Shown here one piece after another: positions 13,714 through 53,994 of a stretch of DNA of 64,000 bases (position 1 is the first letter of the stretch; each line of letters begins with the position of its first letter). The notes below the pieces were generated by a model. The model saw nothing but the letters and a program-made list of their open reading frames with translations, did no database searches and was not told the origin of the DNA. This DNA is from an uncultured Candidatus Binatia bacterium (GTDB lineage: Bacteria; Desulfobacterota; Binatia; UBA9968; JAJDTQ01): NCBI GenBank assembly GCA_965213675.1, contig OZ243916.1, forward strand, positions 3,328,001 to 3,392,000, read 5' to 3'. The position numbers and the translations under genes were made by a program.

Positions 13714-13795
13714 GAGACGCTCCCTCGCCACCGCGCGCCGCGGCCGCGGGCCGTGCCCACCGGCAACCGTTGGAATGCGCCGTTCAGGGGTGTCT

Positions 13796-14326
13796 ATGGC
13801 CAACCATCGAAACGCGACCGCCCGCGGCAACGTCTACTTCAGCCGCGGGCAGCTCTTCGGCGTAGCCACGCTGTTCGTGGGCGTGGCGGCCGTTGTTTTC
13901 TTCTTCGGTATCCTCATCGGACAGAGCATCGAGGAGCGCAAGCTTGCCGGCGAGGGTTACGCCGGGATTACGGTCCCGGTGAGCCCGGGCGCGCCCGGCG
14001 ACGACCAGGAGTTGACCTTCTACGACACGTTGACCAAGACGGCTCCGCCCAAGGCCGGCGCGCCTGTCCAGATCCCGCCGGCCGAAGAAGTCAAGACTCC
14101 ATGGACCGTGCAGGTGGCCGCCGCGGAAACCCGGGCGAAAGCCGACAGCATGGTGGCGAAGCTGAAGGAGCGCGGCTACGAGGCGTACGTCACGTCCGGG
14201 CAACTCAACCGAAGGACCTTTTATCGCGTTCGGGTAGGACGGTACCGGAACCGCCAGGAGGCCATGGTGGATCTTCAGCGGCTCAAGAAGGACAAGTACG
14301 ACCCGATGATCATGGGGACCCAATGA
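13796..14326 (+). CDS. SPOR-domain membrane protein (FtsN/DedD-like)
   Basis: N-terminal TM helix, LTFYDTL motif, C-terminal WTVQVAA...YRVRVG SPOR domain. Confidence 0.85.
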
Positions 14327-15339
14327 ACATCCAGCAAGCCATAACCCGCCTGGTGGACGGCGCCGACCTCAACGAGTCGGAGATGGTGGATGTCATGAAC
14401 CAGGTCATGACGGGCGCGGCGACACCGATTCAGGTGGCGGGTTTCCTGACCGCGTTGCGCATCCAGGGCGAGACCGTGGAGGAGGTCACGGGCGCCGCCC
14501 GGGTGATGCGCGAGAAGGCGTTGCGCGTGGAGGCGGGTCCGGGCTGCGTGCTGGATACCTGCGGCACGGGCGGCGACGGCAAGAACACCTTCAACATCTC
14601 CACCACGGTGGCGTTCGTGGTGGCTGCCGCGGGCATCACCGTCGCCAAGCACGGCAACCGGGCGGTGTCCAGCGGGTCCGGCAGCGCGGACGTCCTGGGC
14701 GCTCTCGGGGTCCGGATCGACGTTCCCAGGGAAACGGTGGAACGCTGCCTGCGCGAGGTCGGTCTGGGGTTTCTGTTCGCGCCGATGATGCACGAGGCCA
14801 TGAAGTACGCCGTGGCTCCGCGCCGCGAGCTGGGCATACGGACCATCTTCAACCTCCTGGGTCCTCTGACCAACCCGGCCAGGGCCAGCCATCAGCTCCT
14901 GGGCATCTATGACGGCGCGCTCATCGGAACCGTGGCGCAAGTCCTTGGCAACCTCGGCAGCGACCGGGCCATGGTGGTGCACGGCGACGAAGGCCTCGAC
15001 GAAATATCGCTCGGTGGCCCCACGTCGGTGGCGGAATGGAAGGATGGGGCGGTGGCCCGCTACACGCTTCACCCCGGAGAATTCGGCTTCGAGACGTGTC
15101 CGGCCGAGCGCCTCACCGCCGCCGACCCGGCGGAATGCGCCGCCATCGTGACAGCGATTCTCAAGGGTGAAGCGGGACCGGCGCGGGATGTCGTGCTGCT
15201 CAACAGCGGCGCGGCGCTGTGCGTGAGCGAGCGCGCGGAGACCATCGCCCAAGGCATCGACGTGGCGCGGGAGTGCATCGATTCGGGAGCCGCCATGGGA
15301 AAGCTCGAACACCTGATCCGGCTGACCAATGAAGCATGA
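14323..15339 (+). CDS. trpD: Anthranilate phosphoribosyltransferase
   Basis: DTCGTGGDG, NIST, KHGNR, GLDE; real start ATG 14323. Confidence 0.97.
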   Translation: MNIQQAITRLVDGADLNESEMVDVMNQVMTGAATPIQVAGFLTALRIQGETVEEVTGAARVMREKALRVEAGPGCVLDTCGTGGDGKNTFNISTTVAFVVAAAGITVAKHGNRAVSSGSGSADVLGALGVRIDVPRETVERCLREVGLGFLFAPMMHEAMKYAVAPRRELGIRTIFNLLGPLTNPARASHQLLGIYDGALIGTVAQVLGNLGSDRAMVVHGDEGLDEISLGGPTSVAEWKDGAVARYTLHPGEFGFETCPAERLTAADPAECAAIVTAILKGEAGPARDVVLLNSGAALCVSERAETIAQGIDVARECIDSGAAMGKLEHLIRLTNEA

Positions 15340-40680: not shown

Positions 40681-41142
40681 TCACAAGACGCCTCCCTGGC
40701 GAGGCTGCTGGTCGGCTGACCGCATGAGGTTGCGGTGTTCGCGCATCCGGTAGCTGTTCCCGCGGATGTTGACGATGTGGCAGTGGTGCAGGAGCCGGTC
40801 GATGAGGGCAGCAGCCATGACCTCGTCGCCGAGGACGCTGCCCCAGTCCTCGAAGCCCTTGTTGGAGGTGAGCACGGTGGAGGCGCGTTCGTGCCTGGCG
40901 TTGATGAGCTGGAAGAAGAGCACGGCGCCGTCCTGAGTGACGGGCAGGTAGCCGATCTCGTCCACCACGAGCAAGGCGGGATAGGTAAGGACCCGCAGCC
41001 GGCGGGAGAGCTCGCCTGCGGCCTTGGCCTCCAGCAGCGACTCGATCAGTCCGGCCAAGGTTCCGTAGTAGACGCGGTGGCCGGATTCGGCGGCGGCGAC
41101 GGCCAGGCTGATAGCAAGATGAGTCTTGCCGACCCCGGGCGG
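40681..41142 (-). pseudogene. istB: istB 3' fragment
   Basis: GVGKTHLA, VDEIGY, LTSN, DRLLHH, GNSYR. Confidence 0.9.
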
Positions 41143-41150
41143 ACCCGCCA

Positions 41151-41627
41151 CATATTGCCCGTTATCACGGTCGCGAGATAACCATTCGTTACCCGTTCCA
41201 TCCTCGTGCTGGCGAGACGATGGCGGTCATCCGGCGCCACCGGTTCCGTGGCATGAGCGTCTTCGTTGTCAGGCAGCCCGACGGAACGCTGGCGCAGATC
41301 CCTGCATGGATGTGCGCCACGGAGGCGGGCGCGATGTCGGTGACGAAGTCCCCACGCCTTCCAGTGGCCGAACTGCACACGCTTCGCATTACCGTCGACG
41401 CCCTTCTATCATCGCTCTCCAAACCCCCCAACGAAGGAGAGCCACATGGGCAAGAACGGGATTCGTCGTCAGAGAGATCTGCTGAAGCTGTTGGAGCCAG
41501 GGCCGGTGCTCGCACCGGAGTTGCTCAAGTCGGTCGTGCCGCTGCTGGCGACACTGCTGCTGCAAGCGGTGGAAGCCGAGGCGCAAAGCGCCGCGGAAAC
41601 GGTGACGGTGGAGGGAGCGAGCAATGA
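41151..41627 (+). CDS. Small accessory protein of the recombinase element (resembles Y4bD/DUF5372-type); natural start absent in integrated state
   Basis: IRYPFHP..G and DGTLAQIPAWM motifs; first in-frame ATG (41220) lies after YPFHP; family name from recall. Confidence 0.55.
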   Translation, partial: HIARYHGREITIRYPFHPRAGETMAVIRRHRFRGMSVFVVRQPDGTLAQIPAWMCATEAGAMSVTKSPRLPVAELHTLRITVDALLSSLSKPPNEGEPHGQERDSSSERSAEAVGARAGARTGVAQVGRAAAGDTAAASGGSRGAKRRGNGDGGGSEQ

Positions 41628-41631
41628 GTAA
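41446..41631 (+). CDS. Small hypothetical protein preceding the recombinase
   Basis: AGGAG RBS, 61 aa, overlaps recombinase start. Confidence 0.4.
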   Translation: MGKNGIRRQRDLLKLLEPGPVLAPELLKSVVPLLATLLLQAVEAEAQSAAETVTVEGASNE

Positions 41632-43577
41632 GGTCTCGGCCGATCATCTCTCCCGTAAGGCGTTTGTCTACATCCGTCAATCCACCCCGGACCAGTTGAG
41701 ACACAATCACGAGAGCCGGCGGCGGCAGTACGGCCTGACGGTGAGAGCCCGGAAGTTGGGATGGGGCGAGACGGTGGTGATCGACGAGGATCTCGGCCGT
41801 TCGGGCAGTGGCACGGCACGGCCGGGGTTCGAGCGGTTGTTGTTGGCGATCTGCGAGGGACGGGTGGGCATTGTCCTGGCGTTGGAGGCTTCACGCCTCG
41901 CCCGCAACGGCCGCGACTGGCACACGCTGCTTGAGTTCTGCGGGCTGGTGGGGTGTCTGCTCGCCGACGAGGAGGGCGTCTACGACCCGCGCCTGCCCAA
42001 CGACCGTCTCCTTCTGGGCATGAAAGGGACCCTGTCGGAGCTTGAGCTGTCCACGATGCGTCAGCGCTCGCTGGAGGCGCTGCGCCAGAAGGCGCGCCGT
42101 GGCGAGCTCCTGCTGAACGTCGCCGTGGGCTACGTGAAGGTTCCGCGAGACCGGATCGTCAAGGATCCCGACCGGCGCGTGCAGGAGGCGATCAGCTTGG
42201 TGTTCCGCAAGTTCTCAGAGTTCCAGAGCGTTCGGCAAGTCCATCTTTGGCTCCGTCAGGAGGAAGTGCTGCTGCCGGCAGTGGACGGCGAGCCGGGTGA
42301 CGGTGGAAGGCGGCCGCAAGCGGGTCAGCCGGGGCCATCGCCGGGACCGCGAGGCCTGGGACGTGTTGATCGTGGATCACCATGAGGGTTATGTTTCCTG
42401 GGAGGAGTTCGAGAGGAACCAGCGTTTGATCGCCGACAACGCCAACTGCAAGGGGTTGATGACACGGGGCGCGGTTCGCCGTGGCGATGCCCTGCTGGCG
42501 GGGCTCTTGCGCTGCGGTCACTGCGGCCGGCGGTTGCATGTTTCCTATAGCGGCACCGACGGCTACTGCGTTCGCTACAGTTGCCGCGGGGCGCACCTCA
42601 ACCATGGGACTCGGCGCTGCATCTCGTTCGGCGGCGTTCGTGTGGACTCGGCGGTTGCCGAGGAGGTGCTACGGCTGTTGAGCCCGTTGGGCATCGAGGC
42701 CTCGGTGGAAGCCGTGACGATGAGGGAGGACAACGTCGCCGAGACGCGGCGCCAGGTGGAGCTGGGTTTGACCCAGGCGCGCTACGAGGCGGATCTTGCG
42801 CGTCGCCAGTACGATGCGGTGGACTCGCAGAACCGGCTGGTGGCGGCGGAGCTCGAGCGCAGATGGAACGAGCGGCTGGCGGAGGTGGCGAGGCAGGAAG
42901 AGCGGTTGGCGGCCACGGCGGCTGTCCAGCCGGATGCCTTGTCCGGCGAGGACAGAGAGCGGCTGCTGGCGCTCGGGGGCGACCTTGAGACGGTCTGGGA
43001 GCACCCCGGCGCCACGGCGGAAACCCGCAAGCGGATACTGCGCGCGGTGCTGGAAGAGATCGTCGCCACCTCGGCCGAGGACCGTATCGAACTCCTGCTG
43101 CACTGGCGCGGTGGCGATCACACCCGCCTGAGCGTTGCCCGCAACCGCACCGGGCAACATCGGTGGCGGACCAGCGCGGAGGTCGGCGAGCTGATCCGCG
43201 GCCTTGCCCGACAGCAGCCGGACAGCGCCATAGCGGCCACGCTGAATCGGCTGGGCAAGCGGACCGGCCGCGGCAACGCATGGACGGAGATGCGGGTCCG
43301 CAGCTTCCGGTGCCATCACACGGTTCCCGTGTACCGGCCGGGCGAGATGGGGGAACGCGGAGAACTCACTCTCAAGGAGACTGCGGGCAGGCTCAGGGTC
43401 AGCACGATGACGGTCCTGCGTCTCATCAGCGCCGGAACGATTACGGCGCGGCAACTCTGCAAGGGGGCGCCCTGGGCGGTGCCGGAGGCGCAGATCACGG
43501 GACTCGAAGGCGCGGAGGTGGTTCCCCACCATCCGCTAACAGCCAACACGGATCAGAAAGAACTGGATTTCCAATAA
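41624..43577 (+). pseudogene. Large serine recombinase, frameshifted near 42290
   Basis: YIRQST catalytic Ser, DLGRSG, SRLARN; second frame carries CGHCG Zn ribbon, coiled coil and HTH; junction appears to lack the NPxYAG segment. Confidence 0.85.
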
Positions 43578-43609
43578 CGTAGAGAGGTGTGCATTATGAA
43601 GCCCGACTC

Positions 43610-43950
43610 GGCGGGCCGATAAAAATGACGTTTTCGCGGCGATCCAGGAAGCCGAGTTCGTGGAGGCTCTCGATCTGCTCGCGCTTGATGCTGGGCTGGA
43701 AGGCGAAGTCGAACTGGGCCAGGGTCTTCACGGCCGGCAGCCGCGACGAGCGCATGGCGGTCTGGAGGCGGCGGTTGTTGCGCAACCCGATCTGGGCGTC
43801 CAACAACTGCTCGATAGCCTCGCTGGCGGTGGCCGCCCCGCTGTCGGCCTGGGCCAGGACGTCGTCGACGGCCTCGAGCGCGCCCGGCATCTTCAGGTCC
43901 GCCAGCATCGCCCGCAGCCGGTCGCGCCGGTTGCCTGCCTCGGCCCTCAT
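43610..43950 (-). pseudogene. istB: istB 5' fragment
   Basis: KTLAQFDFAFQPSI...ENVIFIGPP; ATGA overlap with istA. Confidence 0.9.
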
Positions 43951-44969
43951 GACACGGCCTCCGCATAGGCGCTGAGCGAGCGCCGCTCGACGTCTACGGT
44001 GACGGGCAGGGGGCGCCGGGCTTGCTGTGGAAGCGTGTGCATACCAAGGCGCCGATACGGGCAACTCGCCAACGGCAGCAGCGCCTGTAGCTCGTCACGC
44101 TCGAAGCGGTCCACCGGGCGCTCCCTGGTGGTGCCGTGCCAGCGCCGGTTCGCGGTTCCCTCAAGCCACAAGCGCACCTGCTCGTTCAGGTCCTCGTCGT
44201 TCAGGAACTCCCGGCCGTAGAAGAAGTTGTTGCGGATGTAGCGGATCGGGCGCTCCACCTTGCCCTTGGTTTGGGCTCGGTACGGCCGGCATGCCCGAGG
44301 CCGGAACCCCCAGTGCGCGGCGAACCGTAAGAAGTCCGCGTTCAACACCAACTCGCCCCCGCCCGCGCGGCCGTCCGACACCACCACCGAACGCATCTGG
44401 TCGAACTACAGCTCCTGCGGCACCCCGCCGAAGCACTCGAAGGCGCTCTCCAGCCCTTCGATCAGCACTGCCATCGTCTGCCGCCTGTAAAACCGCAGCC
44501 ACAACAGCCGGGAGTGGCTCAGAACCGTCACCAGAGCGTGCCGCCGCCCCCAGGGAAGCGTGAACGTCGCAAAGTCCACCTGCCCCTGCCGTCCCGCCGG
44601 CGTCTCGAACCGCACCACCGCCTCCGCCGTCTCCCGCGGCCGTACCGACCGAACGTACTCCCTCACACGGACGTACCCGCCCGTGTACCCCGCCCCTCGT
44701 ACCTCGTCGTATAGCCGCTTCGCCGACAACCGCGGATACTCCTCCAGTCGCGCCTCGATGATCCCCTTGTACGGATCCAGCTTGTGACACACCGCCGGTC
44801 TCGCCCTGTACCGCGTCCCGCCTCCCGACAGATCCCGGTCTAACTGCCCCGTCTCCACCCACTCGTGGATCGTCCGGCGACTCACCCCGAACCGCCGCGA
44901 CAGCTCCGTCTTCGTTACACCCCGTTCCAGATAGTGCCTAAGCAGCATCCTCGTCTCCCATCCGTGCAT
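43947..44969 (-). pseudogene. istA: IS21 transposase IstA with in-frame TAG at 44406-44408
   Basis: RFETPAG.QGQVDF, PQEL*FDQM, KGKVER; both ORF halves share a frame. Confidence 0.9.
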
Positions 44970-45089
44970 CTGTGCTCCGCTCCGTTCCTGTTGCTCTTGC
45001 CAACAGCGTGGACCCGAGCACTCACACCGGCAATCAATCTGTGCAGTTTTCGATTGCCATAAATGGGAAATTTACAGTTGCCACCAACA

Positions 45090-45285
45090 ATCCACACCAA
45101 ACCGTCGCGACAACTCCGCCCTGGTCACGCCTCGTTCCAGATAGTGCCTTATCAGCATCCTTGTCTCCCATCCGTGCATCAGTTCGCCGCTCCATTCCTG
45201 TTGGCTTTTCCCAACAGACTGGCCAACGTACACCTCCTCGCAATCTTCTATGTGCGACATCTTCGATTGACACAAATGGGACATT
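45090..45285 (-). pseudogene. Left-end relic of a second (outer) IS21 with the first ~30 istA codons
   Basis: MHGWETRMLIRHYLERGVTRAELSRRFGV (ATG 45179) duplicates the inner istA start; truncated IR 45252-45285. Confidence 0.8.
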
Positions 45286-45467: not shown

Positions 45468-45570
45468 CAAGCCATTGATTTTGTTAGAAACGTCTGTACA
45501 CCTTTCAGGCTCTGCATCTCCTTATTCTGTTATAACTACAATAATTGTATGAATAGTGTTGGCAACTATG
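45468..45570 (+). promoter_or_regulatory. AT-rich leader of the conjugation operon with an IHF-consensus site and palindromes
   Basis: CAAGCCATTGATT (45468-45480) fits the reverse IHF consensus; TGTACA 45495-45500, GTTATAAC 45529-45536, TACAATAATTGTA 45537-45549. Confidence 0.4.
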
Positions 45571-45617
45571 TGATTGTCGTGCTAGACTCTCAGCACTGAC
45601 CATGAGGAGGACCATAA

Positions 45618-45812
45618 ATGGCGAGAAAACCCACGATCCGCGAGCTTGAACAGCTCTTGGAGTCCGAAGAGGATACCCCCATCGAAATACTGCCGAACGG
45701 CGAGATTCGCGCCCGGGGGGGGAGCGATGCCGCAGAGCGGGGCTACAAGAAGCCTCTCACAATGCGAGAGGACCTCGGCGGCGAGTATGGGCGAGGGGGG
45801 ATCCGGGCATGA
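45618..45812 (+). CDS. 64-aa small protein, candidate peptide modifier
   Basis: Strong GAGGAGG RBS, ATGA coupling to next gene; C-terminus DLGGEYGRGGIRA. Confidence 0.75.
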   Translation: MARKPTIRELEQLLESEEDTPIEILPNGEIRARGGSDAAERGYKKPLTMREDLGGEYGRGGIRA

Positions 45813-46183
45813 ATCTGACAAGGGTTCGCCATGAGATCGCGGCCGCTCAGCAGTACTTCGACTACGTGGAGGGCCATCCAACCCCTGAAGGAGGCGTGAT
45901 TGCGTTGATCGCCTTGCAGACAAGCAGGGATGTGTACACGATGGCCGTCTCCTTCCCGGAGTCTTACCCGAACGGGATGCCGGAGGTGCATGTCAGGAGG
46001 CCCGCGTTGCGACCATCTCCCCACAGGTACACGGACAACAAAATCTGTTTCTTGCATCCGCGCATGTGGAACCCGGGGCGCCACAACCTCGCGTTCGTGA
46101 TTCAGCGAGCGGCGAAGTGGTTCGCGAAGTACGAGGTATACCTCGAGACAGGAAAATGGGCCGGCGTCGAAATTAAGCACTAG
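45809..46183 (+). CDS. Prokaryotic E2/UBC-like protein
   Basis: FPESYP..MP, PHRYTDNKICFL, WNP: UBC YP...P / H-x7-C / W.P pattern. Confidence 0.75.
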   Translation: MNLTRVRHEIAAAQQYFDYVEGHPTPEGGVIALIALQTSRDVYTMAVSFPESYPNGMPEVHVRRPALRPSPHRYTDNKICFLHPRMWNPGRHNLAFVIQRAAKWFAKYEVYLETGKWAGVEIKH

Positions 46184-46187
46184 TACG

Positions 46188-46718
46188 ATGGCGATCGAAT
46201 TCAAGCCATTGCCGATGATGGCATTGCGAAGCAGGCCCGGCGAGGTCCTGGATGAGGTGTCCCGAGATGGCGCAGCGTTCCTCATCGAGAGAAACGGGCA
46301 ACAGAAGGCTTGTCTTGTACCGATATCGTACTTCCTTCCAGACATTCAGACGTCCCGCGTCGCGGAGGAGTTGGACAAGATCATCGACTCGAACGAGCAC
46401 TACCGGATCACAATCAGCGGCCAGCGGGAGATTCAACTCATATTCCGGGAGTTCAGTGGCGAAACGCAGGTCGACGTGACGGTAACGCTACCCCACGGCT
46501 ATCCGAACAAAGCGCCGGTTGTATACGCGGCGCCGATCGATGACGGGTGTCCACACCGTTGGCCGGATGGGACGTTGTGCATATACGGTGCCGTAGCTGT
46601 GTGGAACCCAGGAAAACACGACGTGATGCACGCGGTGGCGCTGTTCAGACGGTGGATCCAGCACTACTCGGTTTGGCGGCAGGCCGGACAATGGCCGACG
46701 GAGGGAACTGAACCATGA
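46188..46718 (+). CDS. Phd/YefM-like DNA-binding domain fused to an E2/UBC-like domain
   Basis: N-term LRSRPGEVLDEV..DGAAFLIERNGQQKACLVP; C-term LPHGYP..AP, PHRWPDGTLCIY, WNP. Confidence 0.7.
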   Translation: MAIEFKPLPMMALRSRPGEVLDEVSRDGAAFLIERNGQQKACLVPISYFLPDIQTSRVAEELDKIIDSNEHYRITISGQREIQLIFREFSGETQVDVTVTLPHGYPNKAPVVYAAPIDDGCPHRWPDGTLCIYGAVAVWNPGKHDVMHAVALFRRWIQHYSVWRQAGQWPTEGTEP

Positions 46719-47566
46719 AGGGTCGGTTGTTCGCGAGGATCGAACAGCTATTCGATGTGAAGGCGTTCGAAGACCTTTGGGTGTTGATTGCAGGGTGCGG
46801 ATCGGGCGGTGGCCAAGTGGCGCTGCAGTTGGCCATGTCTGGAGTGAAGAAGTTCATCCTGGCGGACACGGATAAGCTGGAAGTGGAAAATGTTATCCGG
46901 CACGTCTGCGGGATCCGGTACCTGGGTTGGAAGAAGACGGCGGCCCTTGCTGACGTCTTGAGTGACCGCAACCCGCAGATCGAAGTCAAAGAATTTTACG
47001 GCGACGTAACAGCGTGGCCGAGACTGGCAGAGGAGGTCGAGCGCGCGAGCGTTGTAGTCTTGGGGACGGACAACGAACCGAGCCGGTATCGGCTGAACGA
47101 GGTCTGTGTGGAAACGGCGACGCCGTTCACGGTTGGTCGAGTCTTTACGCGAGGAATTGGGGGTGAGGTGTACTCCTACAGGCCCGGGATCGGCGGCTGC
47201 CTGGCCTGCCTTGAGGGGCTTCTTGAGCGGAGCCAATACCGCGACGGTGTCAGGGAAATCGACCTCGTTTCGGAGGAGGAGCGGCAGAAGGTGTACGACC
47301 TTGAAATCGAGGAGATCAAGGACTCGCCCGGCCTATCGGTGGATATCGGGTTCATCGCAGCCTTCCACACGCGGTTCACTTTGGACGCACTGGGCCACGA
47401 AGCGGAGTCCCCACCTAAGTTTATGACGCCGATCGACCATAACTACCTAGTGTGGGGAAATCGAGCCGTGTACCCGTTCTCGAAGAACTTCGAACTGCAG
47501 CGCATGAAGCTGCCACCGCAGGACGGATGTCTGGTTTGTGGAGGACAAGATGAAGGCCAAGAGTAA
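46715..47566 (+). CDS. ThiF/MoeB-family E1-like adenylyltransferase
   Basis: GCGSGG, D.D...N..RH, K, GTDN..SR, Zn pairs CLAC and CLVC. Confidence 0.88.
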   Translation: MKGRLFARIEQLFDVKAFEDLWVLIAGCGSGGGQVALQLAMSGVKKFILADTDKLEVENVIRHVCGIRYLGWKKTAALADVLSDRNPQIEVKEFYGDVTAWPRLAEEVERASVVVLGTDNEPSRYRLNEVCVETATPFTVGRVFTRGIGGEVYSYRPGIGGCLACLEGLLERSQYRDGVREIDLVSEEERQKVYDLEIEEIKDSPGLSVDIGFIAAFHTRFTLDALGHEAESPPKFMTPIDHNYLVWGNRAVYPFSKNFELQRMKLPPQDGCLVCGGQDEGQE

Positions 47567-48467
47567 GGTGCGGGAGGTACGCTTGGAGATCCCGGGAGTC
47601 GTCCTGGAGAGCGTGTTCGAGGAGTGCGACCGCTATGACCGCGAAGAGACGGGGGGGCGCGTGGTAGGCCATTTCACCATAGATTTCGGGACGCTGGTGG
47701 TGCACGTCGGGGGAGTGATTGAGCCGGGTCCAAATGCCCACCGCACAAGCACCAGCTTCTTTCAAGACGGCGATCACCAAGCTGAGGTGTTCCGCCAACT
47801 CGAGGCGGAAGACCCATCGATCGAGCATCTTGGCAACTGGCATACACATCATGTGAACGGATTTCCGAGGCTGAGTGCAGGCGACGTGGCGACCTATCGC
47901 CGGATCGTGAACCACCAGTTACACAACCTGGATTTCTTCTACGCATTGCTTGTGACGAATAGAAACGAAGGCCGGACCGGACTGGACCGATATGCAGTAC
48001 GGCACCACGTGTTGTTTCGTGGTGAAGAGGCCGTCCACGAAATCCGACCGGCCGATGTACACGTAACGGTCGGGCCGAGGATCTGGCCAAAGGAGGCAGA
48101 CTCTTCCACACAAGCTCCTGGCGCAGGTGGCGCAGAGGACGACGGGGCGCGCGGGATTGTTGAAGTACGGGGGCGGGACCAAAGTGTCCTAGGCGTGCTG
48201 TGCCCCTCGATGGAACCCCGGGTGTCAAACCAAACGGGAACGTTCTTTTGGAAGGGTTCGCTGCCGTTAATCGACGGGTCCACGGTAGAGATTCGGGTCG
48301 CCGAAGTCGAAGACGACGGCGGACTGCTCTACTACCCCATCGTCTCAGGCGTGTCGGCGGATGTGGCTGAGTTGTGCGAAACACCATTCCCGAGCGCGTC
48401 CCACGCGGTCCGTGCGTTGGAGTCGCAGATAAATCGGGAGATTTACGAGTCCGCGATAAGGCGGTGA
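47550..48467 (+). CDS. JAB/MPN metalloprotease with C-terminal extra domain
   Basis: EETGG, GNWHTHH...LSAGD JAMM motif; GGAGG RBS before ATG 47550. Confidence 0.82.
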   Translation: MKAKSKVREVRLEIPGVVLESVFEECDRYDREETGGRVVGHFTIDFGTLVVHVGGVIEPGPNAHRTSTSFFQDGDHQAEVFRQLEAEDPSIEHLGNWHTHHVNGFPRLSAGDVATYRRIVNHQLHNLDFFYALLVTNRNEGRTGLDRYAVRHHVLFRGEEAVHEIRPADVHVTVGPRIWPKEADSSTQAPGAGGAEDDGARGIVEVRGRDQSVLGVLCPSMEPRVSNQTGTFFWKGSLPLIDGSTVEIRVAEVEDDGGLLYYPIVSGVSADVAELCETPFPSASHAVRALESQINREIYESAIRR

Positions 48468-48477
48468 GGGCCAAAAT

Positions 48478-49302
48478 ATGGAAGTGTTGACGCTTTACGT
48501 CGGACAAGGGAATTTCGCCGTCATCCGCCACGGTAGGCAGGCTATCGCAGTGGACACTCGGTGGCTTGCTGACCAATCAGACGATATCGAGTCGACGGTG
48601 GGCCGCTTCCTGCAACGGCGGGAACTTGTGGGCGTCGTGTTGACCGGGTTTGATGACGATCACGCCGATCCCGTCGGGCTGGACTGGTTTCTTGAGAACT
48701 ATACGCCCGGCTGGGTGATGTACCCAAAATACTACAAGGATACCGACAACGCGGAAGCGGTCTTCAACGTGGTTCGGAAGCACGAGCGGCGTCGCCAGGG
48801 CACAGCAAACCCGCTTGAGCGCGTTTCTGTACGGCTTGATCGGCTGGAGTCCCGGTACCTCGATGATCTGTCGGAGGAATTCCAGCTAGAGTTGTTCTCA
48901 CCCCACGTCGAGGACATGGACAGCTCTAACAACTGCAGCATCGTGCTGAAGGTGGAAGGAATCGGTCCGGGCGGATTTACATACTTGGTTACGGGCGACA
49001 CGGAGGTCCCCCGGTGGGACCGGATCGTCCAACTTTTCGACGACGCGTTGGACTCGGACGTTCTGGCGGCGCCACACCACGGATCGAAAAACGCCGCTCA
49101 CCCTGGGATGGTCTTGGCGGTCACACCGAACACGGTGCTTATCAGCGCGGGAGTCGACAACCAGTACGGGCACCCGGACAGAAAAGCGGTGCAGTTGTAT
49201 CTGCGGGTGGCGAAGCGCGTATTTCGGACAAACGTGCGGAACGGAATTTCGCTTCTCACAAGGCGAAACGGCGGGGAGTTCCAGACTACCCGTGTGCGTT
49301 AA
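48478..49302 (+). CDS. Metallo-beta-lactamase-fold hydrolase (ComEC/Rec2-like)
   Basis: VGQG, TGFDDDH, NNCS, TGD, APHHGS, NQYGHP. Confidence 0.85.
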   Translation: MEVLTLYVGQGNFAVIRHGRQAIAVDTRWLADQSDDIESTVGRFLQRRELVGVVLTGFDDDHADPVGLDWFLENYTPGWVMYPKYYKDTDNAEAVFNVVRKHERRRQGTANPLERVSVRLDRLESRYLDDLSEEFQLELFSPHVEDMDSSNNCSIVLKVEGIGPGGFTYLVTGDTEVPRWDRIVQLFDDALDSDVLAAPHHGSKNAAHPGMVLAVTPNTVLISAGVDNQYGHPDRKAVQLYLRVAKRVFRTNVRNGISLLTRRNGGEFQTTRVR

Positions 49303-49462
49303 CGGTCGATGGAATTTTCTTCTGCCCATTGGCGCCACCAACATCCTGGCGCTCTTAGGCGAGCCCTAGACTGAATGATTGGGAACACTTCCAATGCGTT
49401 GGGGCTCTTCAACACAACGGTGTGGAACGGGAAAAGCCCAAACAACCCGAGAGGAACGAATT

Positions 49463-50587
49463 ATGACCTTTGAACTACCAACACGCGGGCTCGTTTTTTG
49501 GCCAGTCGGAAACGGTGACAGCACCACCATCGTCATCGACCCCAAGACCTGTCTCCAGATAGACCTCAACCACCTCGAGAAATCCGAGGACGACGACGCC
49601 TCTTGGCCCGTGGTTGATGAACTTGTCAAGCACCTGCCCAAAGTCAACCGCCGCCCCTATCTCGCTGCGTTCGCGCTCACACATCCTGATCAGGACCATT
49701 GCCGGGGCTTCGCCAAACTCCTCAACGAAGTCGATATCGGTGAATTGTGGTTTACACCTAGAGTGTTCCGTGAGTACAAGAAGGACCTCTGCGACGACGC
49801 GGTGGCATTCAAGAAGGAGACGGAACGCCGCGTTCAGAAGGCTATCGACGCCAAGCACGCCCCAGGCTCGGGCGACCGCATTCGGGTCTTCGGCTACTCC
49901 GACCTGCTGGAAGAGGACGACTTCAAGGATTTCCCCAAGGATCGCCTAACTGTCCCCGGTAATGAACTTACCGTCGTCGACGAGAAGGACTTGGCTGGCC
50001 ACTTCCGCGCCTTCGTCCACGCTCCGTTCAAAGATGATGACGCGGGCGAGCGGAACGATACGAGCCTCGCCATGCAAGTCACGCTCCACGCTGGCCCGCA
50101 AAGACTTCGCGCGCTCCTTCTTGGAGACCTTCCCTACCCGATCATCAAGCGCATCTTCGCGATTAGTGACGCCGAGGACCTCGCCTGGAATGTGCTCCTC
50201 GCACCCCACCACTGCTCGAAGGCCGTAATGTACTGGAAGAATGACGGCGACGACGACGAGAAGCTCAAAAAGCACATCGTCGACGAAATGGACGAGGCGG
50301 CACAGGACCCGAATCGTGTCGTATCCAGCTCCAATCCCGTGCCGTCATCCAACAAGGCTGGCGACAACCCGCCTCACGCCAAGGCAAAGACGCAGTACGA
50401 GACCATCACCGACTCCTTCCTGTGTACGATGGACCAGGATGAACCTATCGTGGCTGAACTTGACCACCAAAGGATCGTTCTCGCCGGGGTTGCGACGGCC
50501 TCCAAGTCCGCATCGCAGGCCGCAGACGAAGCGCGCGGCTCAAACAGACCCCCCGACGGCGCCCACACCTACGGCTGTGGCAAATGA
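49463..50587 (+). CDS. Metallo-beta-lactamase-fold protein of the type found beside E2-E1-JAB fusions
   Basis: VGNGDS, THPDQDH, NDTS, GD, APHHCS, PPH; C-terminal tail HTYGCGK; GAGG RBS before ATG 49463. Confidence 0.85.
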   Translation: MTFELPTRGLVFWPVGNGDSTTIVIDPKTCLQIDLNHLEKSEDDDASWPVVDELVKHLPKVNRRPYLAAFALTHPDQDHCRGFAKLLNEVDIGELWFTPRVFREYKKDLCDDAVAFKKETERRVQKAIDAKHAPGSGDRIRVFGYSDLLEEDDFKDFPKDRLTVPGNELTVVDEKDLAGHFRAFVHAPFKDDDAGERNDTSLAMQVTLHAGPQRLRALLLGDLPYPIIKRIFAISDAEDLAWNVLLAPHHCSKAVMYWKNDGDDDEKLKKHIVDEMDEAAQDPNRVVSSSNPVPSSNKAGDNPPHAKAKTQYETITDSFLCTMDQDEPIVAELDHQRIVLAGVATASKSASQAADEARGSNRPPDGAHTYGCGK

Positions 50588-53500
50588 GTAATGGCTACAC
50601 GCTCGCTGGCGAACAGCTAAGGGAGATCGCCGAAACATCGGAAGGCACCGTTCAAATTCATGACGAAACCACACGGCCAAGCGGCTACCGCCAGTTCGAC
50701 GTAAGCATGCGCTTCGACGGCCTTCAACGTGTCGAAGACGGACTTGCAGTGCGAGCCCGTGAGCCATTCCGCGTCATTGTTTCACCTGCCTTCCCTTTCA
50801 AACATCCCGTTGTCGAGACGCCTCACTCTCGTTTCGCCGGCTTCCGGCACGTACAGTGGCGGCGGAGCCCCTGCCTGTACCAAAGCTCCTCCGATTGGGG
50901 CCCAAGCGACGGCATGTACGGCTTCATTACGCGCCTCGACGCCTGGATACGCGACGCCGCACTTAACAATCTCGACCCGGACGACGCACCCCTCCACCCA
51001 CCAGTCGAGTACCCCACGGTCCATCGCCTAATTGTGCCCAAGGCAAATACGCCGGCGGTCTCTGGCACGCCATGGTTTGGATTCGCCAAACTCCGCGAAA
51101 GGAACCATCGCACCGAGATCATTGGATGGGAAGAGAACAGCCAAGAAGGCTCTGACTTCGCGCCTGCAATCCTCCTCCACGAGAATCTTCCCTTCGAATA
51201 CCCCGAAACTGTCCACGCTCTACTGAAAGAACTCGAATTCCACGGAATCGACTATGTGCCCTTTGTCTTCCGACTTGCCGCCCAGGCACGACGCAGCGAC
51301 GCAGGCACACCGCTAACCGTAGTTCTTGGAACTCCGATGCGCCGCGTCGACCCGGGGGGGCCTACCCTTCAGCACTTGGCCGTGTGGGAGATTTCTGCCG
51401 ACGACGCGGACAAGCTGCGCGAGCTGAACATCTCCGCGCAGTTCCGCGGGTCACCGCGATGGGAAGCCGCGACGACGGCGGTCGCCGAATGGGCTGTGTT
51501 TGCCAAGGTGGGGTGGTGCATCGTCCGTGAGATGCGGCCCGAAGTGACCAGCAGACGCGACCATTCATCAGCCATGGCTTGGTTTCGTGGAAAGCGTGTG
51601 GCCATCTGGGGTTGCGGCGCCGTAGGCACTCACGTGGCGGAATCGATTGTACGCGCCGGGGCCAGAACCGTTGAACTCGTCGACAACAAGACTGTTGCAC
51701 CCGGTCTCCTAGTACGGCAAGTCTTCGAAGACGCCGACATCGGAGAGTTTAAGGCCCAAGCGCTCGCCGAACGACTTAAACGGATCGAACCTGACCTCGA
51801 GACACATGTTTCAACCGACGACCTTGTCCTACGTATCATAGGTCCACACCCGGTCCCGGAGGTGGACTTGATAGTCGACTGCACAGCTTCATCGGCCGTT
51901 CAGACAGCCCTCGAGCGAGCACTCCAGGCCGTCGACTCACGCCCCGCGATAGCTGCTGTATCCATCGATAGCCAAGCCGCCACGGCCATTGCCACTCTCT
52001 CTTCGCGCAACCACAGCGGTGCGACCCTCGACCTTGTTCGCCGGCTCAAGCTGGAAGCATGTAGCACACCGGCGCTTTCGAAGGTCCTTGAGGCATTCTG
52101 GCCAAGAACAACGCCAAGTGAGCGCTTTCAGCCAGAGCCCGGCTGTTCGGAACCGACGTTCATCGGTTCCGACGCAGATCTTGCCGCGCTATCTGCGCGC
52201 ATGCTGAATTCCATCACTCACGCTATTGGAAACCCCCGCGATGGCCACACGGGGGCAGGTTGGTTGTTGGAAGAATCGGGAGCGTTACGTGGTTTCGCGT
52301 GGCCTCCGGACCACACCCTGAGGGATGAGGGGCGGGGCTACTCCGTCAGGGTATCTTCACTGGCCGCGCGGGAAATGCGAGGATGGGCTAGGCGTTCCGC
52401 ACGTACGGTCGGCTCAACAGTCGAGACGGGCGGCCTCGTCTTCGGCGAGCTCAACGAAGCCGCGACCGTTCTCTGGGTAACAGATGTCGAGGGACCGCCA
52501 CCCGACAGCGAGGCAGCTGGGGATCATTTCACCTGCGGCACGGACGGCATGGAAACCGTTGCCCAAGAAAGGCAACGCAGGTTCCGTGGATCTGTAGACT
52601 GCCTCGGTAGTTGGCACACCCACCCAACGTCAGCACCCCATCCAAGTCGCGTCGACATCGGCGCTGTCATACAGCTTCTCGCCAACCCGGGTTCGACCCG
52701 TCGAACTTGCCTTGTTTTGATCCTCTCTGGTGACCCGGATGACCCAAGACTGGGCGCGTATGCCTTCAGAACAAAACTAGTCGGCGAAACGCTCATCCGC
52801 ATCCAACCAAGCGCGGCTGCAACCGCGTCCCTTGGGCCAAAGCCAAAGAAACCGCGCAACATCGGAACTGCCCTCTCAGGCGGAGGCTCGCGCGCCATCG
52901 CGTTCCACCTCGGGTGCCTGCGCGCCCTGCACGACCTCGATCTACTCAGCCGTGTTCAGGTAATTTCGAGCGTCTCCGGCGGGTCTATAATCGCGGCCAT
53001 GTACGCCTATTCTTGCGACTCGTTTCGGGAGTTTGACGCGCGTGTTGTAGAGCTTCTTCATCGAGGATTCAAACGGGATATCTTCCGCGAGGTGTTCAAG
53101 CTGGTTTCAATTGGGAAGATCCTGCGACGCCATGTCAGGGCGACCGCGTCTTTCCTATCTCGCACGTTCCTTCGGCTACTTCACGCCGTCGTGAGACCGG
53201 TTGTGGCTCATCGCCAAGGCCCGCCGCCGACCCGCACGTTCAGCCGCACGGAGGCGTTTCGCGACATCATTGCCACCTCCCAATTCGGTGACACCATCGT
53301 ACGCGACGTCGCCCGACATTCACTCCATACGGTCATCAATGCCACAGAACTACGAACCGGCTCCGCATTTCGGTTCGGAAGCAGCCAAAGCGGCTGCTGG
53401 CGATTCGGCACGATTCCCCCCGAAGACGCTCTGGTTGCAGACGCCGTGGCTGCCTCGGCGGCGTACCCGGCACTCTTCCCGGCACTCGAGCGCGAGTACC

Positions 53501-53994
53501 GCTTCACGAAGAACGGGTCCAGCACCGATGCCGCGCGCGTTCTGCTTACCGACGGTGGGGTCTTTGAGAACCTCGGCGTGAATCCGATGGAGCCGGGCCG
53601 GACACCTTCGGTCACCACTAACGTCTTCGACCCCGACTACATTATTTGCTGCGACGCGGGTGCTGGTCTATTCGATGATGACAGCTACCCGACACGTTTG
53701 CACACCCGGATATACAGATCGTTCCTCACGGTCTTTCGCAAGGTCCAAGACGCCACCCGAAAACGCCTACACCACCTTGCCGACGCCGGGGAAATCTCCG
53801 GCTTCGCGTTATGCTATCTCGGGCAGCAGGACAATGCCTTGCCCTGGGTACCAGCAGGTCTTCCTAGAAGGGATGAGGTTCGAGATTACCCTACCGACTT
53901 CGCCGCGATGTCAACGGAAGACGTCGATCGGTTAGCTCTCCGTGGAGAACTCCTGATGAGGCTTCTCGTTGCGTACTACCTCCCAGACCTCTAA
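50584..53994 (+). CDS. E2-E1-JAB-patatin four-domain fusion
   Basis: E2: FPFKHP, HVQW..SPCLY; E1: GCGAVG, DCTAS, EPGCSEPTF; JAB: ETGG, WHTHP....PS.VD; patatin: LSGGGSR, SSVSGG, DGG. Confidence 0.85.
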   Translation: MSNGYTLAGEQLREIAETSEGTVQIHDETTRPSGYRQFDVSMRFDGLQRVEDGLAVRAREPFRVIVSPAFPFKHPVVETPHSRFAGFRHVQWRRSPCLYQSSSDWGPSDGMYGFITRLDAWIRDAALNNLDPDDAPLHPPVEYPTVHRLIVPKANTPAVSGTPWFGFAKLRERNHRTEIIGWEENSQEGSDFAPAILLHENLPFEYPETVHALLKELEFHGIDYVPFVFRLAAQARRSDAGTPLTVVLGTPMRRVDPGGPTLQHLAVWEISADDADKLRELNISAQFRGSPRWEAATTAVAEWAVFAKVGWCIVREMRPEVTSRRDHSSAMAWFRGKRVAIWGCGAVGTHVAESIVRAGARTVELVDNKTVAPGLLVRQVFEDADIGEFKAQALAERLKRIEPDLETHVSTDDLVLRIIGPHPVPEVDLIVDCTASSAVQTALERALQAVDSRPAIAAVSIDSQAATAIATLSSRNHSGATLDLVRRLKLEACSTPALSKVLEAFWPRTTPSERFQPEPGCSEPTFIGSDADLAALSARMLNSITHAIGNPRDGHTGAGWLLEESGALRGFAWPPDHTLRDEGRGYSVRVSSLAAREMRGWARRSARTVGSTVETGGLVFGELNEAATVLWVTDVEGPPPDSEAAGDHFTCGTDGMETVAQERQRRFRGSVDCLGSWHTHPTSAPHPSRVDIGAVIQLLANPGSTRRTCLVLILSGDPDDPRLGAYAFRTKLVGETLIRIQPSAAATASLGPKPKKPRNIGTALSGGGSRAIAFHLGCLRALHDLDLLSRVQVISSVSGGSIIAAMYAYSCDSFREFDARVVELLHRGFKRDIFREVFKLVSIGKILRRHVRATASFLSRTFLRLLHAVVRPVVAHRQGPPPTRTFSRTEAFRDIIATSQFGDTIVRDVARHSLHTVINATELRTGSAFRFGSSQSGCWRFGTIPPEDALVADAVAASAAYPALFPALEREYRFTKNGSSTDAARVLLTDGGVFENLGVNPMEPGRTPSVTTNVFDPDYIICCDAGAGLFDDDSYPTRLHTRIYRSFLTVFRKVQDATRKRLHHLADAGEISGFALCYLGQQDNALPWVPAGLPRRDEVRDYPTDFAAMSTEDVDRLALRGELLMRLLVAYYLPDL

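Follow-up and report, generated by a model that had tools for sequence, protein, structure and literature searches.

In a 64,000-nucleotide stretch of the genome of an uncultured Candidatus Binatia bacterium (contig OZ243916.1, positions 3,328,001 to 3,392,000; hereafter the window), we analysed a gene whose product, here called Phd-E2, joins an N-terminal Phd/YefM antitoxin-type fold to a C-terminal E2/UBC fold. The gene lies in a cassette with the order orf64, E2a, Phd-E2, E1, JAB, ComEC-type metallo-β-lactamase (MBL). Our computations establish the two folds of the protein, the paralogy of its E2 half with E2a, the conservation of the fusion and of the cassette, a shared promoter motif and a predicted dimer. 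We propose, with a probability of about 0.6, that Phd-E2 is both a dimeric autorepressor and the second E2 of a defence-like peptide-conjugation system. The parts of this proposal that we infer are the binding of DNA, repression, catalysis by the E2 half, the use of the orf64 peptide as a modifier, and an effect of E2 charging on repression. The features on which the proposal centres are as follows.

46188–46718, forward strand: Phd-E2 fusion open reading frame (ORF), 176 aa, third gene of a tightly packed operon
46188–46340, forward strand: Phd/YefM-fold N-terminal domain of Phd-E2, residues 1 to ~51, with the Arg14 codon at 46227–46229
46350–46718, forward strand: E2/UBC-fold C-terminal domain of Phd-E2, residues 55–176, with the codon of the candidate catalytic Cys131 at 46578–46580
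45809–46183, forward strand: E2a, stand-alone minimal E2, 124 aa, with Cys80

A conserved fusion of a Phd/YefM fold to an E2 fold

The original prediction, made by a model from the letters of the window, described a Phd/YefM-type DNA-binding domain fused to an E2 enzyme. The ORF is present exactly as it reported, and the protein is a genuine two-domain fusion in which a Phd/YefM fold (residues ~5–50) precedes a minimal E2/UBC fold (residues ~55–176). Fused homologues, on whose existence the prediction depended, number 332 at E ≤ 1e-3, most of them 174–199 aa long. Both halves are highly conserved in an alignment of 26 members, with R14, R35, G37, Q39 and C131 invariant, and the gene is present as a single copy in its own genome. 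An artefact of gene calling or assembly is ruled out by the similar length of the 332 homologues, by 20 loci of identical gene order and by the single copy in the genome.

Several lines of comparison assign the N-terminal domain. The Pfam profile PhdYeFM_antitox (PF02604) matches Phd-E2 at E 2.8e-5 and 24.2 bits, with residues 9–47 on profile positions 5–43 of 74, and all 26 aligned members match it at E ≤ 0.01 (best 3.3e-6). A profile of the Phd-E2 family run against 1.84 billion representative sequences returned 173 matches at E ≤ 1e-3 and also drew proteins of 70–105 aa that aligned to the N-terminal part alone; ten of these small proteins were picked, and all ten match PF02604, nine of them above the Pfam cut-off. 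An AlphaFold2 model of residues 1–60, with a mean predicted local distance difference test score (pLDDT) of 84.6, has the order β5–9, α10–15, α17–27, β30–35, β38–43. When this model was compared with known structures by Foldseek, all matches listed to rank 46 were antitoxins of the Phd/YefM/RelB type, and the N-terminal DNA-binding domain of Phd (4zlx_A) superposed with a TMt of 0.83 and a root mean square deviation of 1.6 over 47 columns. The top 23 rows of a VIA-align comparison were likewise all such antitoxins (Z 6.6–4.3, 44–54 residues aligned), followed by unrelated rows at Z ≤ 3.4. The claim that the first ~45 residues follow the Phd/YefM pattern is thus upheld by the PF02604 matches across the family, by the reciprocal profile matches to antitoxins and by the structural matches, and the model, Foldseek and VIA-align bear out the resemblance at the level of the fold.

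The prediction also stated that a cognate toxin gene is missing. This agrees with our scan of eight operon proteins against Pfam and NCBIfam, in which none of the classical toxin families (Doc, YoeB, RelE, ParE) was found; a classical toxin–antitoxin pair is ruled out on that ground.

The C-terminal half aligns by BLASTP with E2a at 31% identity over 74 aa (E 2e-13), along the motifs in which its likeness to the upstream E2 had originally been seen, and the cysteine said to be retained is Cys131, invariant in the 26 aligned members. The full-length model of Phd-E2 (pLDDT 73.3, falling to 50–68 around residues 131–150) shows a helix at 55–67, four strands and a helix at 146–166, the arrangement of the UBC fold. 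Foldseek matched this model to UEV and E2 chains, two of them at E ≤ 1e-3 (1uzx_A, 3.5e-4; 3r3q, 6.5e-4), with further matches to many E2s, to UFC1 and to the CdnG-E2 chain of a CBASS system (8yjy_B). The 'E2' models of CBASS in PADLOC detect Phd-E2 at 4.2e-8. E2a itself matches one of these models (PDLC00862) at 5.7e-13 and Pfam UQ_con at E 0.0073, below the cut-off; its Cys80, His72 and WNPGRH motif are invariant over 18 sequences. Cys131 aligns with Cys80 of E2a and, in a weak profile alignment (E 0.047), with the GKIC cysteine that is catalytic in UFC1, and it is kept in two divergent proteins, the relative P0121 and the one encoded at metagenome locus L024. Phd-E2 may form a thioester and act as an E2 enzyme.

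Two relatives have a different architecture ahead of the E2. P0121, of 253 aa, carries two near-identical tandem Phd domains (two PF02604 stretches, 48.8 bits), and is either a single-chain pseudo-dimer or the product of an assembly duplication. P0142 combines a Phd-E2-type E2 with a different N-terminal domain of ~105 aa, on a metagenome contig of 1.9 kb (L020, 1202–1798); this type of N-terminal domain occurs alone in three other contigs (L021–L023), and P0142 may be a real domain swap or come from a chimeric contig.

Predicted dimer, candidate DNA-reading residue and promoter motif

The predicted Phd-E2 homodimer received a score of 0.42, compared with 0.00 for the best of three controls. 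Of the proteins solved as same-chain pairs, 20 of 30 reach a mark of 0.42, as does one of the 23 solved as single chains; our prediction took an alignment of our own making, which leaves this calibration only rough. Contacts agreed between runs to at least 85%, and the partner had a pLDDT of at least 77. The predicted interface comprises residues 3–49, with strand residue 43 packed against residue 43 of the partner. This result may reflect only the likeness of the protein to solved Phd/YefM dimers.

VIA-align maps residues 5–54 of the model onto residues 1–51 of DNA-bound Staphylococcus aureus YefM (6l8e_B), and the invariant Arg14 therefore falls at the position of YefM Arg10. In the S. aureus study, Arg10 is described as reading the core guanines of the operator, the β2–β3 wing as contacting the minor groove, and the YefM operators as overlying the −35/−10 region (PMC7544224). 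The wing of Phd-E2, E34–K40, is invariant or nearly so. Upstream of the cassette, the window contains the following features.

45529–45590, forward strand: putative promoter/operator, comprising a palindrome, a −35-like and a −10-like box
45537–45549, forward strand: palindrome TACAAT-A-ATTGTA, 10 bp before the −35-like box
45559–45564, forward strand: −35-like box TTGGCA, with GTGATTGT in the spacer
45583–45588, forward strand: −10-like box TAGACT; the promoter-like site scores 9/12

Promoter-like sites are no more numerous in this region than in shuffled sequence. We also looked for motifs shared between loci. The top 8-mer found de novo in 20 cassette upstream regions was TGCAATTA/TAATTGCA, present in 16 of the 20 at no more than one mismatch; the highest counts from 100 shuffles had a mean of 8.8 and stayed at or below 12. 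The TGCAATTA motif frequently takes the form of a 7-3-7 palindrome that overlies the −35/−10 region, perfect in one locus (L005, GCAATTA-TCC-TAATTGC). With up to three mismatches allowed, the palindrome GCAATTA-N3-TAATTGC has 17 matches in 332,206 nt, and the 1,729 nt at −110 to −20 of orf64 (91-nt windows) hold ten of them, an enrichment that is partly circular given that the 17-bp palindrome was derived from the same loci. The copies before orf64 fall at two recurring positions, ~−85 and ~−41, and in a MAFFT consensus motif copies flank the −35 box. The best match to the 17-bp palindrome in the window's own upstream region has four mismatches. A first half-site test gave 11.37 compared with 9.36 in shuffles and is not relied on, its consensus having been taken off the same sequences. 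Separately, a TGTACA palindrome lies at 45495–45500, ~60 bp upstream of the −35-like box; this hexamer is given as the core of the S. aureus yefM-yoeB operator in PMC7544224.

No conserved separate regulator ORF was found across loci in the 2 kb upstream, except in three that have shared flanks (L007, L008 and L010), and Pfam recognised no DNA-binding domain in the other cassette proteins. Autoregulation of the operon, as the original prediction suggested, is plausible, and it is supported indirectly by the conserved de novo motif, the lack of a separate regulator gene, the placement of Arg14 at YefM Arg10 and the predicted homodimer. The prediction's further ideas, that conjugation state is coupled to repression and that Phd dimerisation scaffolds an E2–E2 relay, are purely conjectural.

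The cassette, its distribution and its candidate modifier

The remaining genes of the cassette and the module that follows it in the window are listed here.

45618–45812, forward strand: orf64, 64 aa, candidate conjugated modifier, ending in KKPLTMREDLGGEY followed by a 7-aa variable tail
46715–47566, forward strand: E1-like adenylating enzyme of the ThiF family, 283 aa (Pfam ThiF 8.2e-27; PADLOC Cap2-type E1-E2 models 4e-25)
47538–48467, forward strand: JAB/JAMM peptidase, 309 aa, JAB domain within ~25–140 (Prok-JAB 25.2 bits, cut-off 25; PADLOC JAB 5.5e-18)
48478–49302, forward strand: MBL1, ComEC-type MBL fold, 274 aa (TIGR00361 ComEC_Rec2 7.3e-26, below the cut-off)
49379–53994, forward strand: neighbouring 6A-MBL module, with an MBL-fold protein at 49379–50587 and an E2-E1-JAB-patatin fusion of 1136 aa at 50584–53994

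The first four genes of the operon are joined by start/stop overlaps or a 4-nt gap: the stop of orf64 overlaps the start of E2a, and the stop of Phd-E2 overlaps the start of the E1 gene. MBL1 also matches the 6A-MBL enzyme model (6.3e-10), below its cut-off, and an Atlas search with the C-terminal residues 150–309 of the JAB protein gave scores of 0.80 or less, which are leads at most. The neighbouring module scores 280.5 bits with NF058524 (cut-off 220) and 350.2 bits with NF058523 (cut-off 320), and its fusion protein matches the Pfam families Patatin (2.3e-20) and Prok-E2_A (4.6e-18).

One scan of 185,579 species genomes yielded 19 loci at 56–82% identity, from Gammaproteobacteria, Holophagales, Binatia, Gemmatimonadota, Longimicrobiales, Vicinamibacterales, Terriglobia and Paracoccaceae metagenome-assembled genomes. 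All six cassette genes are whole in 17 of the 19. The two remaining copies are one cut by a contig end (L017) and one (L015, 6802–8216) in which an opposite-strand gene for a 430-aa methyltransferase-like protein takes the place of orf64 and of ~54 codons at the start of E2a, so that this copy has lost its promoter end. The gene order is also kept in the metagenome locus L024, at 49% identity. A patatin domain is encoded downstream in the window, in 15 of the 19 genome loci and in L024; it directly follows MBL1 in six loci, comes after a second MBL (MBL2) and an E2-E1-JAB protein in five, and is fused to the E2-E1-JAB protein in four as well as in the window. No patatin gene lies directly downstream in L003, L004 or L011. 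A 6A-MBL module directly follows the cassette in the window and in nine of the 19 loci. A sample of 300 further genomes of the phylum to which the window belongs did not contain the cassette, and a scan of viral contigs returned no relative of Phd-E2. The cassette is rare among reference genomes and spread over many phyla, a pattern that fits a mobile defence element, and the operon as a whole is conserved, horizontally spread and defence-like, and appears to be undescribed.

The candidate modifier, orf64, has 592 homologues; the 120 listed include 100 of exactly 64 aa and 102 with the 7-aa tail. Conservation extends over ~57 residues, through ...REDLGGEY, and the variable tail overlaps the ribosome-binding region of the next gene. 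The peptide matched nothing in Pfam, NCBIfam or PADLOC and gave no usable match in the Atlas, and no ubiquitin-like protein (Ubl) family was matched by any cassette protein in the first three of these collections. Two representative relatives, P0190 and P0191, are in-frame fusions of orf64 to E2a, the latter with 70% identity to orf64 residues 2–57 and 50% identity to E2a. They recall the Ubl-E2 fusion of Type I Bub, which the Bub papers describe as cut by a peptidase-E1 protein (PMC11601603, PMC11601596). The orf64 product is possibly a modifier whose length does not suffice for a β-grasp fold. Another relative, P0235 (248 aa), has three orf64-like hairpin repeats (…PNGEIV…GTVIKPQRW) ahead of an E2 domain and may be a poly-modifier-E2 fusion.

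Some observations concern the surroundings. Translations of window positions 40681–45100 on both strands, judged by eye, contain fragments of IS21-like transposase and helper genes, together with a serine recombinase split into two ORFs (41624–42385 and 42297–43577), and the DNA around the cassette looks like a mobile region that has been rearranged. In L011 a LA2681-like HEPN protein (13728–15188; PF18733, 7.8e-55) is encoded downstream of the cassette, and in L007 an SNF2-type helicase gene follows patatin; both fit a defence-island setting. The orf64 gene with its LGGEY peptide, the ComEC-type MBL and the link to patatin were not part of the original prediction.

Proposed mechanism, alternatives and relation to known systems

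Phd and YefM repress their own operons. In the mechanism that we propose for the cassette, the Phd/YefM-fold domain would make Phd-E2 homodimeric and would most likely bind TGCAATTA-type palindromic operators over the −35/−10 region of its own promoter, repressing the cassette, while the C-terminal domain would act as a minimal Cys-bearing E2. The JAB peptidase would trim the 64-aa orf64 peptide, probably after LGG; the E1 would adenylate the trimmed peptide, and E2a, perhaps together with Phd-E2, would hold it in thioester linkage. The likely effectors are the MBL and the patatin phospholipase. A bolder form of this mechanism has the Phd-E2 dimer sitting on its operators until E2 charging or self-modification with the 54-residue, non-β-grasp LGG peptide releases the DNA and arms the MBL and patatin; we regard this conjugation-gated repression as conceivable though improbable.

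A number of results weigh against the proposal. The PF02604 score of Phd-E2 lies below the gathering cut-off of 29.8 bits, and the match to TIGR01552 (phd_fam; E 0.007) reaches 15.7 where the cut-off is 20.8. A profile of the N-terminal domain searched against PDB sequences returned no Phd/YefM chain, its best match (E 0.28) being to an unrelated protein. Foldseek E values for the 60-residue model are never better than 9.7e-3, so that none reaches 1e-3, and the top VIA-align Z of 6.6 is in the range that the tool rates as middling. The homodimer score is exactly at its mark. The whole protein is so conserved that the conservation of Arg14 and the wing is unspecific evidence. Where E2s classically have HPN, the E2 half has C/A/T-P-H; the first residue of this motif, Cys121 in the CPH of the window protein, is not universal, with Thr at this place in P0121 and Ala in the protein of L024. 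On the DNA side, besides the partial circularity of the palindrome's enrichment, GCAATTA-N3-TAATTGC at up to three mismatches has no match anywhere in the window, whose own copy is degenerate; a generic inverted-repeat test on the upstream regions gave 6.68, as against 6.66 in shuffles; and the AT-rich L024 has one promoter match, with two in total where 1.23 are expected by chance. Finally, the C-terminal 170 aa of the JAB protein or orf64, both without an assigned fold, could be the DNA binder.

Several of these points would also suit a Phd fold that only dimerises and binds no DNA, pairing two E2s, for example for chain building, or pairing Phd-E2 with E2a or the E1, with the motif read by something else. 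Confinement of the predicted interface to residues 3–49, with the score of 0.42 against a best control of 0.00, fits this arrangement, as do the degenerate palindrome of the window and the negative inverted-repeat test. It sits poorly, however, with the de novo finding of the motif in 16 of the 20 promoters, which come from many phyla, with the lack of a conserved separate regulator gene upstream, with an Arg14 and β2–β3 wing that are invariant or nearly so, and with closest structures that include DNA-bound Phd and YefM. We consider dimerisation alone unlikely. The view that the E2 half is a non-catalytic UEV- or RWD-like variant, serving as a sensor or adaptor that binds the peptide or E2a and keeping its conserved Cys for structural reasons, draws on the best Foldseek matches, which are UEV domains (1uzx_A and 3r3q), on weak Pfam matches to RWD and UEV (RWD in 12 of 26 members) and on the loss of the HPN motif. 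We find this view doubtful and give it the least credence of the alternatives considered here, since Cys131 is invariant in the 26 members, kept in P0121 and L024 and aligned with the catalytic Cys of E2a and UFC1, and the PADLOC E2 models detect the protein at 4.2e-8.

Alternatively, Phd-E2 could be an enzymatic antitoxin whose Phd head represses while its E2 tail keeps the MBL or patatin inactive, whether by attaching the peptide to that effector or by binding to it, with JAB reversing this on infection. The order of a DNA-binding head followed by a tail is that of an antitoxin, with the classical Phd/YefM tail absent, and potentially toxic effectors are linked to the gene, patatin being encoded in the window, in 15 of 19 loci and in L024. 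Against this, nothing points to either effector as a target of conjugation, MBL1 homologues do not conserve a C-terminal Gly, L003, L004 and L011 lack a patatin directly downstream, and conjugation in CBASS primes the system rather than silencing it (10.1101/2022.05.25.493364; PMC12948482). An antitoxin role for the E2 tail is distinctly unlikely in our judgement, less so than a non-catalytic E2 half and more so than dimerisation alone.

Phd-E2 resembles Phd of phage P1 and YefM (PF02604) in its β-α-α-β-β N-terminal fold and in the predicted homodimer formed through that domain, and YefM also in the arginine at the Arg10 position and in a palindromic motif over the −35/−10 region, as in yefM-yoeB. 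It differs from both in having an E2 domain in place of the toxin-binding tail, in the lack of a Doc, YoeB or RelE gene in the operon and in scoring below the Pfam cut-off.

Among E1/E2 systems, the cassette is close to type II CBASS (Cap2 E2-E1, Cap3 JAB, and the E2 of Serratia marcescens CdnG-E2): its E2s, E1 and JAB match PADLOC CBASS models, the E2 chain 8yjy_B is among the fold matches, and the effector classes are defence-like. In contrast to type II CBASS, the cassette lacks a CD-NTase, no protein of it matching a CD-NTase or nucleotidyltransferase family in Pfam, NCBIfam or PADLOC; the sole 'Cyclase' match is that of E2a to the E2-like C-terminal end of model PDLC00816. Furthermore, the cassette encodes E2 and E1 by different genes, has a pair of E2 paralogues of which one carries the Phd head, and adds the LGGEY peptide gene and the ComEC-type MBL. 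Like Bil and Bub, the operon encodes an E1, an E2 and a JAB peptidase, and in P0190 and P0191 a candidate modifier is fused to E2 as in Type I Bub. Unlike Bil and Bub, the cassette contains no β-grasp Ubl that we could find, its candidate modifier having ~57 conserved residues, and it has an extra Phd-E2 and MBL; its E2 keeps the Cys, whereas Bub uses oxyester intermediates. The make-up of the cassette was not found in the Bil and Bub descriptions consulted.

The combination of E2, E1, JAB and an MBL-fold protein is shared with the anti-phage system 6A-MBL (NF058523 and NF058524), which Iyer et al. 2006 list as row 6a of their Table 1 (PMC1779556). In 6A-MBL the three enzymes are joined in a single chain that includes a Prok-E2_A domain, unlike those of the cassette, whose E1, JAB and MBL1 score 44.5, 44.4 and 38.7 bits with the 6A-MBL models, where the cut-offs are 320, 320 and 220. 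None of rows 6a–6e in that article has the make-up of the cassette. Transcriptional control of a bacterial immune operon, here a candidate function, is known from regulators of the CapH/CapP and CapW type; CapH/CapP occur as separate regulators in 15% of Type II Bil operons, according to a preprint (bioRxiv 10.1101/2023.09.26.559546). Unlike those regulators, which are separate proteins of other folds, the candidate repressor domain of the cassette is fused to an enzyme of the pathway.

The original prediction knew of no description of such a fusion. The literature that we could search likewise yielded none of the fusion or the cassette; supplementary operon tables, for example of the Bil and Bub papers, might list them. 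The family itself is not new to databases, however: among the 120 homologues listed of the 332, 118 carry the precomputed Pfam label PF26395.1 and 31 also that of PF02604, and one NCBI record for a family member is named as a Phd/YefM antitoxin.

Bacterial systems built from E1, E2 and JAB proteins, such as CBASS Cap2/Cap3, Bil, Bub and 6A-MBL, are current models for the origin of ubiquitin-type signalling and for its role in immunity. To these the cassette adds an E2 joined to a DNA-binding head of toxin–antitoxin type, a second E2, a tiny candidate modifier with an LGG motif, and an MBL and a patatin as likely effectors. Should the Phd head bind the operator and repress, a conjugation enzyme would be physically tied to the control of its own operon, and the family would be an example of antitoxin modules reused as regulators of defence systems. 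Should the conjugation-gated form of the mechanism be true, a ubiquitin-like cascade would directly control its own transcription, Phd-E2 would be the first bacterial E2 that is itself a transcription factor, and the orf64 peptide would be the first bacterial modifier conjugated by E1 and E2 that is too small for a β-grasp fold.

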